From contig CAVVOP010000005.1 of the NCBI GenBank assembly GCA_963749915.1, positions 224,001 through 288,000 of the forward strand: a stretch of 64,000 bases of DNA. Reading direction: 5' to 3'. Origin of the DNA: an uncultured cyanobacterium. GTDB taxonomy: Bacteria; Cyanobacteriota; Cyanobacteriia; Cyanobacteriales; Cyanobacteriaceae. Made by a program: the position numbers and the translations under genes. Positions 31,438-42,504 of the stretch are shown here, in pieces. How positions within the stretch are numbered: position 1 is the first letter of the stretch; every line of letters begins with the position of its first letter. Under the pieces are notes generated by a model that saw nothing but the letters and a program-made list of their open reading frames with translations, was not told the DNA's origin and did not search any database.

Positions 31438-32919
31438 ATGGGAAAAGCCACAGGATTTTTAGAGTTTACTAGAGAATTACCCGTTGATAAAGATCCTCTT
31501 GAAAGAATCCAAAACTGGGATGAATTTCACTTACATTTACCCGAAGAAAATCTCCGTAATCAGGGTGCGAGATGTATGGACTGCGGTACGCCCTTCTGTC
31601 ACACTGGTGAACTTATCAGTGGTATGGCTAGTGGTTGCCCTGTCAATAATCTCATTCCTGAATGGAATGACTTGATTTATCGGGGTTTATGGAAAGAAGC
31701 ACTGGATCGCCTTCATAAGACTAACAACTTCCCTGAATTTACTGGTAGAGTATGTCCTGCACCCTGTGAAGGATCTTGTGTACTAGGAATCAACAATCCT
31801 CCTGTTACCATTAAAAACATAGAATGTTCTATTATAGATCACGGTTGGGATCAAGGTTGGGTAACCCCTCAACCCCCTGAAAAACAAACAGGCAAAAAGG
31901 TTGCGATTGTAGGCTCAGGCCCTGCAGGTTTATCCGCCGCCGCACAACTTAATAAGGCTGGACATTCTGTCACAGTTTACGAAAAAGACGATCGCCCTGG
32001 TGGATTATTAATGTACGGGATTCCTAACATGAAACTCGATAAAGAAAAAGTTGTCATGCGTCGTATTCGAGTTTTAGAGGAAGAGGGAATAAAATTCATC
32101 TGTAGCACTGCTATCGGTAAAGATATTCCTGCCGAAACTTTAGTTAAAGAAAATGATGCCGTTATCCTTGCCATCGGTGCAGGAAAACCCCGTGATTTAC
32201 CCATAGAAGGGAGATCACTCAACGGGATTCATTTTGCCATGGATTTTCTTACCGCTAACACCAAAGCCGTTTTAAACAAGAATCAAGAAGGTTTAATTTC
32301 TGCTGAAGGTAAAGATGTCGTTATCATTGGCGGAGGAGATACAGGCACAGATTGTGTTGGTACATCCGTAAGACATGGTTGTAATAGTGTAACCCAGTTA
32401 GAAATCATGCCTCAGCCCCCAGAAATGAGAGCAAAAAACAACCCTTGGCCCGAATATCCTAAAATTTATCGTCTGGATTATGGACAAGAAGAAGCTGCCG
32501 CCAAATTTGGTAATGACCCTAGAGTTTATGTTACAACAGCCACCAAATTTGAAGGAGACTCCCAAGGTAACGTTATTGCCGTGCATACTGTGGAGGTAGA
32601 ATGGGCAAGAGATGATCAAGGGCGTTTTATTCCTAACCCCATAAAAGGTACAGAAAAAAGATTACCAGCCCAATTAGTGTTACTAGCAATGGGTTTCCTT
32701 GGTCCTGAACAGTTATTATTAGAACAGATGGGCTTAGAAAAAGATAATCGTAGTAATATTAAAGCCGAGTATGAAAAATATACCACCAGTATTCCTAACG
32801 TATTTGCGGCAGGAGATTGTCGTCGGGGTCAGAGTTTGGTAGTGTGGGCATTTAATGAAGGCCGTGGTGTCGCCAAAGAGTGCGATCGCTTCCTGATGGG
32901 CTATACGGATTTACCATAG
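31438..32919 (+). CDS. gltD: NADH-dependent glutamate synthase small subunit
   Basis: [42 protein letters not shown]; large subunit gene not adjacent. Confidence 0.95.
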
Positions 32920-32981: not shown

Positions 32982-35303
32982 TTAATTAATTTCAATAATT
33001 TCTCCTGCTTCTTTTTCGCTAATATTTCCATCTAATATTTTGTCAAAAAACTCATTTAAAGATATATCAATTCTCACTTGTCTTGTGGATATTGGATGAT
33101 ATTGTAAATTTTCACATAACTTTTTAGCATAATTATAAAGAGTTGAATTTTCTGTGACAAAATTAGTATCATTTTCTCGAAAAGTAAGTAAATAAATGAG
33201 AGTAATTAAAGCATTTTGTAGATAACCTCTATCTCTATCCTCACTAGGATTAAGAGTTAAACTATAGGTAATAATTTGATTAAAATGTTGCTCATAATCT
33301 AAGAATTGATCAGAATTATTAAAATCAAAATACCAGACTAAAATTCTAGCATAACCCCAAAGATAGTTTGCTATTTGATAAAATTGCTTATCTTCTCTCT
33401 CTGAATAAAAACTGAATAAATTGATAAACTTTTTCTGTCTCGATAACGTGCAAGACATCCTCGCCATATTCTGTAAGTAAATTTGAAAATTATTAATATT
33501 TAGTATATTTATTTTATTCTGTTCAAAAATATAATTTAATGACATATTTTTTGTTAAGGCATAACTTTTTCCTAAGAATAATAAAATATCTCCATAAGCA
33601 TTATTAATAGCATTTTTCTGATATTGACTCATCTTTCGTGAAAATCTTTGACTTAATTCCGATAAATTTTTATCCAATAAATTCTCCAATGATTGATAAA
33701 AATTCAGAAAATATTTTTGCTCAAAATTATTATTATCTATATTTAAAATTATCGGTAAAATATTTTGAGTATCTAATCTTAATTGACGAATTTTATCAGC
33801 TTTTTCGAATAAATTAGAAATAGTTAATATGTTTTTCCATAATTCTAATTTGTCTCGTAAAATGTCTTTATTTTGAGCTAATTTTTCAAAGCCTCTTTGA
33901 GAGATTTCTTGACGAAAATCAACAATCTTATCGTAAGGAATATAACCTAAAGTAATTTCTTCTCTATCTACTAAAGAAGATGTTAAAATGCGATCAAATT
34001 GATCAATAATTTCTAATTTTGGGTTTAATCCGGGTTGAAGACGAAAACGAATTTTTATCTTTAATTCTGGTGTTTTCTCAAAATATTGATTGTTAATTTG
34101 ATAAATTTGCTCTTTTTCCGTATCATCATTAATTAAAGGTTGTTCATTCACAGTAAAAGGCAAAGAAACCGTAGGCTTTAACAGAGGAAATTCATTAGTT
34201 ATAATTCCTTGATTATTAAGATATTCTCCATAGACAATAACTTCTTTTTCTCCTTCATAACAAATTTGGGAGGGGAGACTAATTTCCATGTCTTTATCTT
34301 CTCCTTTTCGGCGGACAAAAAAGCTGATATTATCTAAATGTTGCCCATAAAGTGGAAACTGTTTTTTTCTGGTTTCTTTCCAAATATTATCAAAATTATT
34401 TTCCTCTGTTTTAAGAATAATAAACTCATTACTCAGGGCATTATAAATGCTGGATATTTTGCCATAGTTAGTTAAAATAACAAAATGATATTGATCTTGA
34501 TTATTTTTAACAACTTCCCTTAACTTTTCTAGGGGAAAATTTTGCGAAATAATAGCACCTAAATCATTAACATCAAGATTATACTGATAATAGTTATTAT
34601 CTATTTTAATTAGTAAAGGTAAATTGACCGTATTATGATTAATGTGAGAAAAAATATTGATAGCTTTTAGATAATGGATAGTTTCCTGAAGATGACTAAT
34701 ATCGATTTTACATTGATGAATAATTTTATTAGCAATTTTTTCGCAAATATTGTCATAAATATTTTCATAATTAAGATTAAGATTTAAAAATTTATATTTT
34801 TCAAGATTGCGAGTATCAATGATAGGAATAGGATAAGGTGAATTAGGCGAATTTTCAAAAGTTAGGGGAGTAATTTGCTGAGGAGTAAAGCTGTCAAAGT
34901 CATAAATTATTATAGGTTTACCTGATTGGGCATAATTTTTAAATTGATTAGTATAACTCCAATAACGATAGACATTACTATAAAGATAACGAGAATTTAA
35001 TGCTCTTAAAACTAAAGAGTTTGCTTCCCGAATAATAAAAATTTGCTCTGAATTATCGTCATTGATAGAAAATCCTAATTTTTGTTTGATGATAGAGTTT
35101 TCACGAGGTTTTAATTGTTGAGGAAAACTAGAAGTAATAGCAGGAAGCGGCAAAAATTCTCGATGACTATAGGAATGATAAAAGTTTTTATAAGCTAAAG
35201 GTAATGAATGATTATCAGGGATTAATTTTTGGGAGGATTTACCAAAAAGTTCGGCATATTGACAACATTCAAGATAAGATTCAAGGTTAAAAAATCTAGT
35301 CAT
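32982..35303 (-). CDS. 773-aa hypothetical protein of the defence island (possible degenerate Hsp70-like region plus helical repeats)
   Basis: Intact long ORF; central beta-rich segment (LKIKIRFRLQPGLNPKLEI) and helical C-terminus; last gene of the operon. Confidence 0.6.
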   Translation of the reverse strand: MTRFFNLESYLECCQYAELFGKSSQKLIPDNHSLPLAYKNFYHSYSHREFLPLPAITSSFPQQLKPRENSIIKQKLGFSINDDNSEQIFIIREANSLVLRALNSRYLYSNVYRYWSYTNQFKNYAQSGKPIIIYDFDSFTPQQITPLTFENSPNSPYPIPIIDTRNLEKYKFLNLNLNYENIYDNICEKIANKIIHQCKIDISHLQETIHYLKAINIFSHINHNTVNLPLLIKIDNNYYQYNLDVNDLGAIISQNFPLEKLREVVKNNQDQYHFVILTNYGKISSIYNALSNEFIILKTEENNFDNIWKETRKKQFPLYGQHLDNISFFVRRKGEDKDMEISLPSQICYEGEKEVIVYGEYLNNQGIITNEFPLLKPTVSLPFTVNEQPLINDDTEKEQIYQINNQYFEKTPELKIKIRFRLQPGLNPKLEIIDQFDRILTSSLVDREEITLGYIPYDKIVDFRQEISQRGFEKLAQNKDILRDKLELWKNILTISNLFEKADKIRQLRLDTQNILPIILNIDNNNFEQKYFLNFYQSLENLLDKNLSELSQRFSRKMSQYQKNAINNAYGDILLFLGKSYALTKNMSLNYIFEQNKINILNINNFQIYLQNMARMSCTLSRQKKFINLFSFYSEREDKQFYQIANYLWGYARILVWYFDFNNSDQFLDYEQHFNQIITYSLTLNPSEDRDRGYLQNALITLIYLLTFRENDTNFVTENSTLYNYAKKLCENLQYHPISTRQVRIDISLNEFFDKILDGNISEKEAGEIIEIN

Positions 35304-35327
35304 AGTTTTATACTTTCAGTTAGTTAG

Positions 35328-36983
35328 TTAATTAAAAATTTGTTTAAGTTGAGAGATAATTACTTTAATTTCTTCGAGGTTAGTAGTCTTATAGGTTAAG
35401 TCAAATAATGGGTTACGATTAAAAGCAAAATCTTGACTACTTAGATAAGCAATTTCCCTACCAATCAAGACAATTTTGCTATGAAGATGATAAACTTTTT
35501 TGGCTTTTAAGTTACTACTGTTAAAGTTACTATAAAAAATCAGATGAGGAATTTTTCTAAGTAGGTTTACTTGTTGACTATTCGGCATAAAGTTACGAGT
35601 AACAATGATAACTTTATCTTGAGGATTATCGTTAAAGTTTTGTAAGGAGATAGTTAAGTCTTTTTCATATTCACAAGAGTTTAAAAAGCCATTATTTTTA
35701 GGTGATTTAGCCTTATGGGAAATTAAACTTTCGACACGATAACCTTCCGCCGAAGGAGTAGTTTTAGCAATGGTTTCGTGTTGCCAAAGATAATCAAAAT
35801 AGTCGATTAAAAATTGATGTTGCGAGTTATTTTGCCAGATTATTCCTCCTTCAATATTTCGGTTTAAACTTCCTCCCGTCAAATTACATGAACCCAAATA
35901 AGCACCTTGTTCGCTAATATAGGTTTTAAGGTGAAAATTGCCACTGCGAAATCTGACTTTTGCTTTTGTCAAAATTTGTAAACATTCTTGTTTGAGTTGA
36001 TCAGAATGGGCATATTCTGATTTATCATTTTTTTCATCTTCCATGTTAAAATCAACTCGATCTTGCACTTTTTCACTCAAATCTGTTAATATCCAAACTC
36101 CGAAGGGTAACTCTTGACTTTTTTTGGCGATTAAATTGACAATTTCGACATCTTCAAGGCGATAACTACTTATTAATAAAAATTGTTTTGCCTTATCAAT
36201 TAACTCCTCCAAAAATTGACGATGATTACCTTTTTTTATATAAATTTTAGATGAATTAAGAGTTTGATTTTCAATGGTAAAATCAGGAATAATGCCGTAT
36301 TTTTTTTGATAGTTAATCACGAGAAAATTATTGCAGCAAGTTTTCGGATTATTGGTTAAGATTTCTATCGTTTCTTTTTGTTGAGGAGACAATTCTTGAC
36401 GATAAAAAATTGCAAGGCAGTTGTTAGGTAAATAAATAGAAAATTCTTGACTTTTGGTATTTTTAACAAAATTTTCGATGACGGCTAAGGGATTATTCGT
36501 TATAAAAAATTGTAAATAATTAACCGCTATAGTTTTGACATTTTCTAAAATAGGATTGTCTATATTATTAGATAAGTCGAGGTGATAAAAACTTTCGACA
36601 AAATCGATTAAATTGTCAGGAATTTGGGCATCATTAGAATTAAGAGAAAAAGGTGTAAGTTGGCATTGTGATTCAGGAATAAATTGATAACTAAATTTGA
36701 GAGGTTGTAAGTTTTCTTCCGCCGATGTTAACAAAGGAAGCAAAATATTTTTAGTTAGTAAAGAAGAGTTGGTAACTTTTTTGGCTAACAAACCGTTAAA
36801 ACTATTTACCGATAAAATATTTAAGCCAAAACCTTGATAAACTTTCGAGACAGAGTAAATTTTTTCTTCATTGGCAATATGATAAATAGTCTTTACCAAA
36901 TTATCGAGATTCGTTTCCGTCACCGTTTGATTATCAAGAGGATGTTTGCTATATTTACCCTTTATCTTCCAAAATATTTTCAT
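35328..36983 (-). CDS. Phospholipase D-superfamily (nuclease-type) protein with two HxK motifs
   Basis: HLKTYISEQGAYLGSCNLT and HSKIVLIGREIAYLSSQDF; IDKAKQFLLISSY. Confidence 0.8.
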   Translation of the reverse strand: MKIFWKIKGKYSKHPLDNQTVTETNLDNLVKTIYHIANEEKIYSVSKVYQGFGLNILSVNSFNGLLAKKVTNSSLLTKNILLPLLTSAEENLQPLKFSYQFIPESQCQLTPFSLNSNDAQIPDNLIDFVESFYHLDLSNNIDNPILENVKTIAVNYLQFFITNNPLAVIENFVKNTKSQEFSIYLPNNCLAIFYRQELSPQQKETIEILTNNPKTCCNNFLVINYQKKYGIIPDFTIENQTLNSSKIYIKKGNHRQFLEELIDKAKQFLLISSYRLEDVEIVNLIAKKSQELPFGVWILTDLSEKVQDRVDFNMEDEKNDKSEYAHSDQLKQECLQILTKAKVRFRSGNFHLKTYISEQGAYLGSCNLTGGSLNRNIEGGIIWQNNSQHQFLIDYFDYLWQHETIAKTTPSAEGYRVESLISHKAKSPKNNGFLNSCEYEKDLTISLQNFNDNPQDKVIIVTRNFMPNSQQVNLLRKIPHLIFYSNFNSSNLKAKKVYHLHSKIVLIGREIAYLSSQDFAFNRNPLFDLTYKTTNLEEIKVIISQLKQIFN

Positions 36984-37024
36984 AACTTTATCCTTATTTA
37001 ATTTATCAAAAACTTTATACCTTT

Positions 37025-37050
37025 CTTTGCGTCTTTGCGCCTTTGCGAGA
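37025..37050. repeat. Short tandem 8-mer repeat (CTTTGCGY)n
   Basis: ctttgcgtctttgcgcctttgcgaga between the helicase and PLD genes. Confidence 0.7.
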
Positions 37051-37065
37051 AAAAATCTTATAATT

Positions 37066-38460
37066 TTAAATTAAAGTTATATCTCGAATGACATCAAATG
37101 TGTTTTTGTTAAATAAATCTGCAAATACTGAATTTTCATAATAAGTCTTATCTCCAAAAATAATAATCTGATTTTTTCCCCTTGTTAAAGCTAAATGTAA
37201 ATCTTTTTGACTGATTTGATAAGAGTCATTTTTATCACAAATAATTAAAACATTTTCCCATTCTTCCCCATAACATTCTCTGATTAATTTGATATGAGTG
37301 TAAATCCCTAAATTAGCTAATTTTTCTTGTAAAAGATTCCGACTATTTTCGGTAAAAGTAACTACTTGATAATCCTTATTAAAATTAGAGAAGGTATCTT
37401 GCAAAATTGTCAATAATTGCTCATCATTAATAATATCATGCCAAATTAAACAATTTTTTTCTCCCGTAAAACTGTTAACATTCCATTCGTTGAAATTTCC
37501 ATAACTATCATTTCCGTAAATAATCGGTAAAATTTTTAAGGCAAGTTGTGGATTAAGGCGATAATTTTGCTTAATTTCTAAACGATAAGCTGGAGATAAA
37601 CTATAAAATAGCTGATTAAATCTATTCTCTCTATTTGCTAACAACTCCCCGAAGAAAACTAACTTTTCACTATAATTTGCTAAAATTTCGATTGTCTCTT
37701 TCTCTAAGTTATGACTATCATCAGCGATGACTAAATCAAAGGTTGTGTTTTCTAAAAAATTAAGATATTTTTCTTGACAAATTACGGGAATTTTCAGGGA
37801 GTTTATCGCCATTGTTGTTAATTCTTCTAAGGCGGTATCGGAAAGATATTGATAACTCTGTTTTAAATACTCTTTTCTCTCTAATAAATTCCTCGATTGT
37901 TGGATTTTTTTCAATAATAATAGTTGACGAGTTTTACTGCTGTTAGAAAATTCTTTTTCAATTTTTTCGCTTAATACTTTTATATCGTTTTCGTCGAGAA
38001 TATTTAACCATTTTTGCGGATTCATTGCTATTTTTTCAAAAAGACTATCAGGCAAAAAATAATTAGGAGTAAAGTTAAGGTTAGGGTTAGTAAAATTTTT
38101 CTTTAACCATGCTTTAAATAATTGACGATATTCTTGATTATTCCTAATTTCTAAAGGCATTAATTCCAGTTTTTGATAGCGGTTTAAGCTACTTTCATAG
38201 GGAGAAATAATTAAAACTGATTTCTGATTTGCGATCGCAATATTTGCTATATTATGGATTATCTTACTCTTACCACTTCCTGATATTCCTGCGATGGTGA
38301 CTAAAGGAGAGTTAGAAAGACATAATTCTATCGCTTGTTTTTGTTGAGGGTGAAAAGGAAAATTACCGTTATATGTCGGTAAATTTAATGACACTCTTTC
38401 GGGAATAAAACTAAAGGGTTTTTCTATGATTCTGTTGAGTATTTCTAAAGATAAATTCAT
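37066..38460 (-). CDS. SF1 (UPF1/DNA2-like) helicase-family ATPase, compact and divergent
   Basis: QKQAI Q-motif, GISGSGKS Walker A, LVIADDSH Walker B variant, QNYRLNP, GEEWENVLI, LALTRGK. Confidence 0.78.
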   Translation of the reverse strand: MNLSLEILNRIIEKPFSFIPERVSLNLPTYNGNFPFHPQQKQAIELCLSNSPLVTIAGISGSGKSKIIHNIANIAIANQKSVLIISPYESSLNRYQKLELMPLEIRNNQEYRQLFKAWLKKNFTNPNLNFTPNYFLPDSLFEKIAMNPQKWLNILDENDIKVLSEKIEKEFSNSSKTRQLLLLKKIQQSRNLLERKEYLKQSYQYLSDTALEELTTMAINSLKIPVICQEKYLNFLENTTFDLVIADDSHNLEKETIEILANYSEKLVFFGELLANRENRFNQLFYSLSPAYRLEIKQNYRLNPQLALKILPIIYGNDSYGNFNEWNVNSFTGEKNCLIWHDIINDEQLLTILQDTFSNFNKDYQVVTFTENSRNLLQEKLANLGIYTHIKLIRECYGEEWENVLIICDKNDSYQISQKDLHLALTRGKNQIIIFGDKTYYENSVFADLFNKNTFDVIRDITLI

Positions 38461-38509
38461 GTTGTCTGTGATTTTTAATATCTAATGTTTAATTTTTCAT
38501 TATTTGTTT

Positions 38510-40068
38510 TTAAATCAATTTTTTAAGCCAATAACAAATCTTTTTAGTTAATAACGTCACTCCTGTTTCTAAATTTTCCTCGAAAGGATTGGGAATTTTA
38601 ATTAAAGTAATATTAGATAAGTTATCCTCCTCATTGTCATTAAAATCTGTGAGATAAATTACCACTGGAAAATCTGATTGTTGTTTTATATTTTCTAAAA
38701 TTTTGAATGAAGGTTTATGCCAAAAAATCCAAATAGGAATAATCACTGAATCTGGATTTTCTTGAGTATTTCCTAAAAGATGACGGGTAACTTTTAAGGT
38801 TAAATCTCCTTTTCTGATGTCTTGATGACGTTGAATGTCAAAGGAAAAAACCACCGTTTGTAAAAAACAAGATACGGTTAAGGGTTTCTTGTCTAATTCT
38901 TTTAAATATTTGCCATAACTAGGCACATCTAAAATATCTGTATGGTGTCTAAAGGTTTAATATAACTTCCTTCCAGATTCAGTAAACTACCTAATAATAA
39001 AATTGCTACCACATCAATTAAAAGATTGTTACGAAAACTCCAGATTTTTTCCTTCTCACTAAGTCTTTTTAAATAGTCTTGATAGGCTTGATAAAAACTA
39101 CGATAAATAGGATTTTGTTGCAAAACATAGTTAGGTTTTACCGTAAAAGTTGCTGAAACTGGAATTGATTTTACACTTTCTTCTTGACGGAATTTGTTAA
39201 TCGCCCTTTCCAAAGATTTAGCCTCAGAATAACTATCTCGATAATCTCGACAATCTAAGTGTAATAAGTTACAAAAACCTTTTAAAAAACGATTCTCAGG
39301 AGTGTTAAAGTTTTGGTAACGTTTAATACCCATTAATTCCTGTCTCGCCCCAGCTTTTTCTATGGCATTTTTACCCGATTTTTTTACATAATCTCGCAGA
39401 CAATAAGCATCCATTTCTTGAATATTTCCTAATGGCATCATCTCCGCTTTACGATTAAGTTGTGATCTCAATTTTGGTGCAATTAACTCTAATTTATGTC
39501 TTAGTTTATACCTTTTATTTAAGGCTAAAACAAGGGGTAAACGAGCATCTTCTTGACTTAATTTTGCTAAAGAATCAGGAATTTTTAACGGATATAAAGG
39601 GTGTCTATAATCTTCGGATAAAAGAGAAAATAAACTAATAAATAAATTAATAATCTCCGCCGTATTTCTATTACATTTTCCCCCTAACTCTTCTTGTAAA
39701 TTAATAGCTAAATTTTCATCATTAGTAATTTGAGTTTCATCAAAAATATCATCTTCTAAAGTGAGATAAAAAATTTCTCCTTGATTAGTTTCAATTATTA
39801 CAGATTTAGTGACACTTTTATTCGTTTCCCAATCTCTAACTTCTACCCAAGGAAAACCAATTTCATAGACTCCCTCTCCTCTTTCTATTAAAAAGTTATA
39901 TTCCGGTTTTAACTTCTCTTTTTCTAAAACTAACACAGGTCGATCGCATCCTCTTAAATATAAGGAATTATCTGGATTAAATTCCCAAGGGCGATTAAAT
40001 AAATAATCAGTCAAACTAGCATAAAAAAGCATAATTTTAGAAGATATAACTGTAGGATTAATTCTCAA
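38510..40068 (-). pseudogene. DUF2357/McrC-like protein split by a frameshift near 38930 (ORFs 38929-40068 and 38510-38926)
   Basis: PKLRSQLNRKAEMM..IQEMDAYCLR, FNTPENRFLK, KPNYVLQQNPIYR DUF2357-like motifs; abrupt stop at QIF* with the next frame continuing ILDVPSYGKYL. Confidence 0.7.
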
Positions 40069-40107
40069 AACTGAAAAGATTAATAATTGTTAATTATTAA
40101 TTATTAA

Positions 40108-41667
40108 TTAATAAACCATTCCTTTCCATTGAAATTGTCCATATTGCCCTTCACAAGCCTTTTCAAAAGCGCGATTTAAAGGCTCATCTTGCAACTCATT
40201 AATTAGGGTTTTAAGCTCATCTAAATGAGGTTTTACGTTGCTATCTTCTACCATTATGCCCCTCAATTTAGGTAATAATTTTTGTCCAAATTGATCAGCG
40301 ATCGCACTTTTCATGATAGACTGATCATGATGAGCATTAGGATAATTAGCCACATATTTAGCAATACCCTGATAAACTCGATGGGCAAAAGGACGACCCA
40401 ATTGTTCCATAATATTATTAGCACGATCGTACATAATCTTTTACTATATCAGTATGCCCCTGTAGTGGCTCATTAATCCAACCTTTAAAATTATCCCAAG
40501 ACAAGTATTCTGTGGGAATTGGAAGATTATCGTTTCTGTCACCTCTTAACTTTAATTCTGTAGGTCGCCCAAAAGTAAGAACATTTGCTCTATCTAAAAC
40601 CTTATCCGAGAGAGATTGAGTGGTTTCATCCTCATTCATTGTGCCTACAAACAAAAATTCTTCGGGGATTTTCACCCTTCTTTCATTTTGAGGAAGTTTG
40701 ATACTACCGATTTCAATGTCTAAATAAGTAGGTTTATTGCGTCTTGTTTCCAATTTCGAGAGAAAATCACTGAAATAATACTCTACCCTTGCCAAATTCA
40801 TTTCATCTAACAACACCAATACCATACGCCCATTAAAATTATTATCATGCTGATGTTGATAAAGATAGTGCATTAATTCTGTCGGTTTGTATTTCTTTTC
40901 GATATAGTTGTAAAATCCCTGTAAATCTTGGGGTGAATCCCAACGAGGTTGCACTGGTAGCATTACCAACGGTGCACCAATAAATTCGCTGTAGGCTTGG
41001 GGTAATTCGCTTTTTCCCGTGCCACTAATACCTGCTAAAATAACTAAAGCCGAAATATCTTGCACTTTCAAAGAGGTATGAAAAGCCTTAATAATCCTTT
41101 CAGGAAATACTAAACCTTTCTTGTTCAAATAGTTATTAAATTGTGTTAAAAAATCTGTTTCCGAAGCAAAATTTTTAATTTCTTTAGCCTTAATATCTAT
41201 AGAAATTTGTAAAGCTTGAAGAGCTTGTTTTGCACTATTTTCTATATCTTCTATATCTTCTTTTAATTGACAAATTTTCTCTTCTAATTCTTTTATTTTT
41301 ATCTCTCTAAACTCAATTTCCTGCTGTATTTCTTGTTGAATTTGTTTTAATCGTACCTCTTTCCATTCAATTTCTTGTTTGATTTCTTCTTGAATTTGCC
41401 CTAATTTTCTCTCTTGTCGTGTAATTTCGTTCTGATTACGGGCAATATCATCCTCTAAATTTGCCCTTTCAGAATCTAAATTTTCAATTTCACGTTTTAG
41501 ACTCCTTTTTTGTCCTTGAAAAATCATAACTTGTGCCGATAAATCTTCAATTTCAACCCTTAAATTTTCAGCAATTATCGCCTTTCCTTCTGATTCTTGA
41601 ATAACTTGTAAAAGGCGACTTTTTTCTTCTTCTAAACGAGGAATTTCTAACGCTAAATTATTTTTTC
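40108..41667 (-). pseudogene. Coiled-coil McrB-like AAA+ GTPase (NxD type), 5'-truncated by IS ends and frameshifted near 40430
   Basis: Long heptad region; GISGTGKS Walker A; VQPRWDSPQDLQGFYN; LLDEMNLARVEYYFSDFLS; GTMNEDETT..LSDKVLDRAN; C-terminus DRANNIMEQLGRPFAHRV..QKLLPKLRG in another frame. Confidence 0.8.
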
Positions 41668-41995
41668 GTAAGCGTTCAGGGGGTAACGAAATGTGGTAGT
41701 TTAGGGAAATGCAACAAAAGCAACTACTAAAGACTAATTTTTTGTAACCGTTCAGGGAGGTAGCAAATTTCCCTAAACCTAAAAAGCCAAACACCTGATT
41801 GATTCAATAGGGTTTTAGCGAATTATTAGTCTATAAATAAAGTCTGCCCAAAATGGCAAAAAAATATATCAAGGAGGGTAATAGCACTTTTAACTATTAA
41901 AAATAATACGAAAAAAATCATATTGAGCCTAGTTTTCGTACTGATCTCCCTCGATTTAATATAGAGCATTTTTTACGCCCCCCTTGAACAGTTAC
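41668..41995. mobile_element. Nested IS66-like end remnants / MITE without transposase
   Basis: GTAAGCGTTCAGGGGG (41668), GTAACCGTTCAGGGAGG (41744) and inverted CCCCCCTTGAACAGTTAC (41978-41995); flanks of 41744-41995 are AATTTTTT and AATTTTTA. Confidence 0.7.
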
Positions 41996-42207
41996 AATTT
42001 TTATAAGTATATCAAATTGTAAGTACCTTGTCTTATGCTATGCTATTTTGACAAAAAAAATACGCAAGAAAATAACCCTTGTCAAGGGAGCTGATCAAAG
42101 TTACAATAGATGATCTGAATATTCCGTGAACAAAACTGATAGATTCCTGTTCCTAAGGTTTTTGTCTGAATATATTTAATTAAAGTAATCCATATAAGAA
42201 TAAGATA

Positions 42208-42504
42208 GTGGCTAACTCAAAATCTGCACTCAAAAGAATCGCAATCAACGAGCGTAATCGTATGCGTAATAAGGCTTATAAATCTGCGGTTAAAACCCTA
42301 ATGAAAAAATATTTCCAGGCAGTAGAGGCTTATGTTTCTTCTCCTAGTGAAGAACAGTTACAAACCGTACAAAGTTCCATGTCTATGGCTTATAGCAAAA
42401 TTGACAAAGCCGTAAAAACAGGGGTTTACCATAAAAATAACGCCGCTAGAAAAAAAGCTAGATTGGCTAAAGCCTTGAAAAACGTTGTACCTCAAGCCTC
42501 TTAA
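42208..42504 (+). CDS. rpsT: 30S ribosomal protein S20
   Basis: [11 protein letters not shown]...[25 protein letters not shown]. Confidence 0.97.

Follow-up and report, generated by a model that had tools for sequence, protein, structure and literature searches.

The five-gene block between gltD and rpsT in a 64,000-nucleotide stretch from an uncultured cyanobacterium (contig CAVVOP010000005.1, positions 224,001 to 288,000; hereafter, the window) is best read as a Type III-C CoCoNuT operon, cnuB-C-H-E-D, that lies in a variable slot and has recently been inactivated. Taken together with the working model for the intact system set out below, we give this reading a probability of roughly 0.85. 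That the locus is a Type III-C CoCoNuT at all is close to certain. On this reading it is a degraded example of a subtype already in the literature and not a new kind of system, and its pseudogenisation is a point absent from an earlier note on the same DNA.

Bell et al. (eLife 2024; PMC11090510) describe Type III-C as mainly cyanobacterial and as comprising a coiled-coil CnuB GTPase with an NxD motif, a CnuC with an inactive PD-(D/E)xK domain, CnuH, a CnuE with two phospholipase D (PLD) domains and a separate CnuD of Hsp70-like and HEAT character, with no TerY-P. Their III-C CnuC also carries an Ig-like sandwich at its N-terminus and keeps the fold of the inactive nuclease, and their CnuE starts with a distorted wHTH. 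The block in the window occupies the minus strand between gltD (31438-32919) and rpsT (42208-42504), its genes 24-82 bp apart, and its guanine-plus-cytosine (GC) content of 0.292, versus 0.375 for the genome, is equalled by 0/1114 genome windows of 8.7 kb. Strand, spacing and low GC are as the earlier note had them; its count of five open reading frames (ORFs), however, needs amending to seven, with cnuB and cnuC each split by a frameshift. The cnuB pseudogene (40108-41667; AAA_5, E 1.5e-7) is read as ORFs of 458 residues (40418-41794) and 108 residues (40108-40434), and the cnuC pseudogene (38510-40032; DUF2357, E 7e-9) as pieces of 367 residues (38929-40032) and 138 residues (38510-38926). 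Intact ORFs follow for cnuH (37066-38460, 464 residues; Viral_helicase1, E 7e-10; AAA_19, E 7e-5), cnuE (35328-36983, 551 residues) and cnuD (32982-35303, 773 residues). The gltD-rpsT interval holds no additional ORF of at least 70 residues, and hence no TerY-P ORFs.

The GTPase motif of CnuB is GTMNEDE, confirming the NxD rather than NxxD form reported earlier, and the same motif stands in 15/15 aligned intact relatives. Among the proteins of the window, the sole strong system-specific PADLOC match was that of PDC-M26A to this GTPase (E 3e-54). In a FastTree phylogeny that kept all 165 candidate GTPase domains, whose tips carry no type labels and do not include the typed Type III sequences of Bell et al., the window copy and the 15 CnuB proteins from related loci fall within one 32-tip clade (support 0.889). 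Coiled-coil-type profiles match the window ORF over approximately residues 45-210; the long N-terminal coiled coil claimed for the GTPase is therefore present, but only as the final part of the coil found in relatives, the start of the ORF being an insertion-sequence (IS) remnant. For CnuC, which is 82-86% identical to single-ORF relatives of 506 residues (range among relatives, 506-538), no conserved PD-(D/E)xK catalytic motif was seen by eye in the alignment rows displayed, in agreement with what had been said of this McrC-like protein.

Alignment of CnuH (16 sequences) delineates a Walker A motif (GISGSGKS) with a helical insert after it, a degenerate Walker B (IADDSH) and a motif VI (LTRGK), shortly past which the protein ends, with no fused Vsr nuclease. 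Its assignment to the UPF1 clade draws on weak matches, namely AAA_12 (E 0.04) and TIGR00376 (E 2.5e-4, below cut-off). CnuE carries two PLD-type HxK motifs (H351 and H501), both present in 15/15 aligned sequences, the first coinciding with the PLDc_2 match (E 1e-14), and a Pfam scan returned no HEPN match at E up to 1. The domain match and paired motifs support the earlier proposal that the PLD protein is the likely nuclease.

The 773-residue protein, which had been left as unknown and for which Pfam, PADLOC and NCBIfam profile scans gave no significant match, is recognisable as CnuD from its predicted fold. An AlphaFold model built from a 64-sequence alignment (pLDDT 89.5) suggests an Hsp70-like region followed by HEAT/ARM repeats (approximately residues 470-770). 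The top ranks of a Foldseek search with this model all belong to the Hsp70 family (best, DnaK 4jn4, E 1.1e-8), and the C-terminal ~300 residues (approximately 472-766) match HEAT/ARM proteins at Z 10-14, e.g., importin beta 4xrk (Z 12.7, root-mean-square deviation 4.5, 256 residues aligned); as Z values near 13 are common among helical repeats, this second match is supportive only. CnuD also has a homologue, MBD2152462.1, at 39% identity and 100% cover (E 1e-165). This accession lies three numbers after MBD2152459.1, which is the III-C CnuC representative of PMC11090510, i.e., at the spacing expected for C-H-E-D, and from this numbering we infer that the two genes are adjacent.

The domain content and folds thus fit Type III-C, bearing out the CoCoNuT assignment of the earlier note. 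With the subtype as described in PMC11090510, the locus shares the NxD coiled-coil GTPase, a DUF2357 CnuC lacking the catalytic motif, a superfamily 1 (SF1) helicase, a double-PLD effector, a separate CnuD, the lack of TerY-P and a cyanobacterial host, and differs in being broken, through a 5' deletion and a frameshift in cnuB and a frameshift in cnuC. As characterised in the same paper, Types II and III-A also have an NxD coiled-coil CnuB, a CnuC, a UPF1-like CnuH and a CnuE effector, but theirs are HEPN effectors, their CnuH is longer, with SPB, RTL and OB domains, and TerY-P is usually adjacent, none of which is seen at the window locus; moreover, CnuD is fused to CnuC in III-A and separate here. 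Type III-B is alike in its separate CnuD and inactive PD-(D/E)xK in CnuC, whereas its Vsr nuclease is fused to the helicase, it has a separate CnuA and it is mainly alphaproteobacterial; neither such a fusion nor an extra gene occurs here. CoCoPALMs, according to that paper, combine an NxD GTPase with a transmembrane and coiled-coil N-terminus, as is suspected for intact III-C CnuB, but go with signal-peptidase-family pilus factors, for which there is no ORF between gltD and rpsT. Canonical McrBC of Escherichia coli K-12 likewise pairs an AAA+ GTPase with an McrC-family partner, but its NxxD motif, methylcytosine-binding domain and active McrC nuclease were not seen in the window. DISARM was also considered and rejected: the DrmC profile scored 41 bits against a cut-off of 133, and no other Drm match was found.

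Lesions in cnuB and cnuC disrupt this copy. At the 5' end of cnuB, ~350-420 codons are lost, with the break exactly at the end of an IS66-family element (41667/41668). DNA similarity to the related loci L015 and L016 ends at 41667, and the first ~42 codons of the 458-residue ORF, like 41668-41998 as a whole, are IS remnant lying outside the operon. The left end of the element (41668-41743, plus strand), whose end motif starts at 41668, matches the ends of elements on contigs C14, C17, C19 and C21 of the same genome at 85-87%; elsewhere in the genome, copies of the element stand ahead of an IS66 transposase, and the ORF of the C19 element is a DDE_Tnp_IS66 protein (E 3e-36). Further mobile-element remnants fill 41744-41998: another IS66-type end motif lies at 41744, and two stretches match the sequences flanking a transposase remnant of the DDE_Tnp_1_3 kind (C5:371413-372421). 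Relative to L015 and L016, cnuB also carries a +1 insertion at 40430 and cnuC a +2 insertion at ~38940, neither in a homopolymer. We infer that an adjacent deletion linked to IS66 took away the start of cnuB, its hydrophobic N-terminus and most of its coil, together with the operon promoter. Given the 5' deletion of cnuB and the frameshifts in cnuB and cnuC, the system is most likely off.

For comparison, 24 other loci were fetched via cnuD matches, and are thus selected for cnuD. All five genes are intact in 11 of them; in 6 the block is present but one gene or more is broken or survives as a remnant; contig ends truncate 4; and 3 retain only cnuD remnants. Across the 17 loci of the first two groups, all cyanobacterial, the gene order is again B-C-H-E-D. 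The broken blocks (L015, L017, L020, L032, L037 and L039; 6/17) and the remnants (L023, L040 and L041) are recorded here with no claim that the rate is unusual. In L020 (9868-11320, genome G030), cnuE is interrupted by transposase-like ORFs that by eye resemble the IS66-type ORFs of G000, and in L037 (3714-5207, genome G226) a degraded block has the 5' end of cnuD tandemly duplicated. The spread is patchy: including the window's own genome, cnuD occurs in 12/61 and 20/401 of the genomes searched, and in 3/7 within the genus. The closest intact orthologous locus is L016, at 71-84% identity. Against L015 and L016, the ratio of nonsynonymous to synonymous substitution rates (dN/dS) for the operon is 0.15-0.31, implying purifying selection for most of the history of these genes.

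Other accounts of the block have been weighed against decay of a known subtype. The earlier note suggested that its layout may be an undescribed CoCoNuT subtype, a cyanobacterial variant in which a stand-alone helicase and a stand-alone PLD protein come with a large partner. Those genes are indeed present, but the arrangement is already published as III-C. The missing profile match of the 773-residue protein speaks for novelty, as does the fact that PADLOC system-specific models recognise the GTPase alone; nonetheless, every defining III-C feature tested was found at the locus, and the CnuD homologue maps beside the representative of PMC11090510. That note had itself named an exact match to a described subtype as grounds for dropping the claim of novelty, and since III-C is such a match the claim falls; we regard an undescribed subtype as exceedingly improbable. 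An operon intact in the organism and broken merely by assembly or sequencing errors would better suit the environmental contigs, compared from 4/17 listed runs: near-identical contigs X1 (record 7, with one further differing letter across 547) and X2 (record 13) do not have the insertion at 40430, and X1, X2 and X6 do not have the two bases near 38940. On this evidence the frameshifts either arose recently in this genome alone or are errors. A repeated element also lies at the 41667 junction, a setting in which assemblies can be wrongly joined, and no contig bridging the junction was present among the matches listed. However, tblastn with five intact CnuB proteins matched only the place in the window, their N-terminal part being found on none of the 34 genome contigs; the longer IS-remnant matches are only 78-88% identical to other copies; the indels lie outside homopolymers; the long neighbouring genes are unbroken; and related blocks are broken too. 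With the deletion bounded by an IS and the neighbouring genes unbroken, we judge the lesions very probably real and wholesale error unlikely. Alternatively, cnuH, cnuE and cnuD might have been retained because they still work as a unit in the absence of CnuBC, as their intact ORFs and the retained motifs of CnuH and CnuE would allow. Yet in none of the other loci (0/24), where the contig permits a view, is H-E-D intact while B and C are cleanly missing; recent lesions mean that intact frames need no selection; and the region upstream of the operon has been replaced by IS remnants. Such a module is accordingly quite improbable, even less likely than assembly or sequencing error, and an inactivated III-C operon is the reading retained.

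A working model for the intact system can be drawn up after PMC11090510. CnuB would assemble into a GTPase ring of McrB type, carried on a long coiled-coil stalk; CnuC would stimulate it and bind nucleic acid with its dead nuclease domain, the two acting as a GTP-driven motor and scaffold; and CnuD, via its Hsp70-like and HEAT parts, would sense a phage-derived or stress signal. CnuH would then deliver nucleic acid to CnuE. PLD nucleases build one active site from two HxK motifs, and the two HxK half-sites of CnuE would likewise pair into a single nuclease site for cleaving RNA (or DNA), leading to phage restriction or cell arrest. An anti-phage nuclease role is probable for intact III-C systems, and RNA is slightly favoured over DNA as the target. 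A Type II-like CoCoNuT in Pseudomonas is reported to protect against PP7 and LeviOr01, which are RNA phages, and, of two DNA phages named, against MPK7 though not MP29 (10.64898/2026.04.06.716636), while the portion of PMC12458937 at hand adds a Type IV CoCoNuT and has nothing on III-C.

Several points weigh against our reading. Operon dN/dS is above that of gltD and asnS (0.05-0.07), and the two small indels may be assembly errors. The canonical Walker B DE of CnuH is kept in 1/16 sequences and degenerate in 15/16, with Walker A and motif VI retained, and a CnuH of this kind weakens the step that presumes an active helicase. Literature searches brought up no experimental work on Type III-C, and the mechanism is a prediction. 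The accession KIF35900.1 presumably belongs to H. byssoidea. When seven named CnuC homologues were looked up, this accession, which is one of those in PMC11090510, was not listed for the H. byssoidea CnuC match. The tie to the III-C set of that paper is drawn from the features described there and from accession numbering.

At the family level, intact CnuB proteins begin with an uncharged, Gly/Ala-rich hydrophobic segment before the coil (e.g., L016:12696-15509 and 14 others). N-terminal hydropathy over 19 residues is at least 1.5 in 14/15 intact loci and at least 1.6 in 12/15, and the 15 intact cnuB genes encode 618-937 residues, length apparently varying through the coil. A single-sequence model of L016 CnuB residues 1-200 predicts a continuous helix over residues 59-199; in the same model residues 11-54 have pLDDT below 50, the hydrophobic segment not being modelled. 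Just outside the clade, 106/112 long CnuB-like proteins have a strongly hydrophobic N-terminal segment (0/112 for a control stretch); the names of 10 outgroup proteins disclose no type, and some of these 112 could be CoCoPALMs; by a stricter two-helix criterion applied to proteins of at least 600 residues, the counts are 11/18 within the clade and 18/112 outside it. We tentatively suggest, at slightly less than even odds, that an intact Type III-C CoCoNuT is membrane-tethered, i.e., that a coiled stalk several hundred residues long would suspend its GTPase ring from the plasma or thylakoid membrane, where the ring would act at the place of phage entry or of membrane-bound translation, with CnuH serving the PLD nuclease as an adaptor that does not unwind. 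This concerns the family only, the window copy having lost the hydrophobic segment. In the passages of PMC11090510 consulted, Type II and III CnuB proteins are described with coiled coils only, and none of the six passages containing "transmembrane" deals with these CnuB proteins; neither the hydrophobic CnuB N-terminus nor the degenerate CnuH Walker B is mentioned there, though the figures or Type III tables could hold them.

In its present state, as a decayed member of a published subtype, the window locus matters little in itself. Its practical use is to point to the 11 intact orthologous loci in which Type III-C could first be tested, to provide two family-level leads, i.e., a possible CnuB membrane anchor and a CnuH with a degenerate Walker B, and to record how a defence operon in the variable slot beside rpsT was lost in connection with IS66.

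Genes flanking the operon vary among genomes, with the asnS-gltD neighbourhood common only to L015. Congener G002 (L046) provides an empty site, in which gltD adjoins rpsT and the DNA corresponding to window positions 32987-42052 is absent. Gene content in the slot upstream of rpsT differs from one to the next of six congeners (L043-L048), with an SspB homologue in G005 (L048:2961-3908; PADLOC E 6e-125), and the slot may be a defence hotspot. Promoter and terminator scans were uninformative (65 sites versus 47.6 expected, and 5 terminators versus 3.7 expected). Elsewhere in the genome, at G000:C8:932499-936685, a remnant of a repeat shared with window positions 41738-41907 lies between CRISPR-Cas-looking ORFs, which by eye we take to be Cas10-, Cas1- and Cas2-like.

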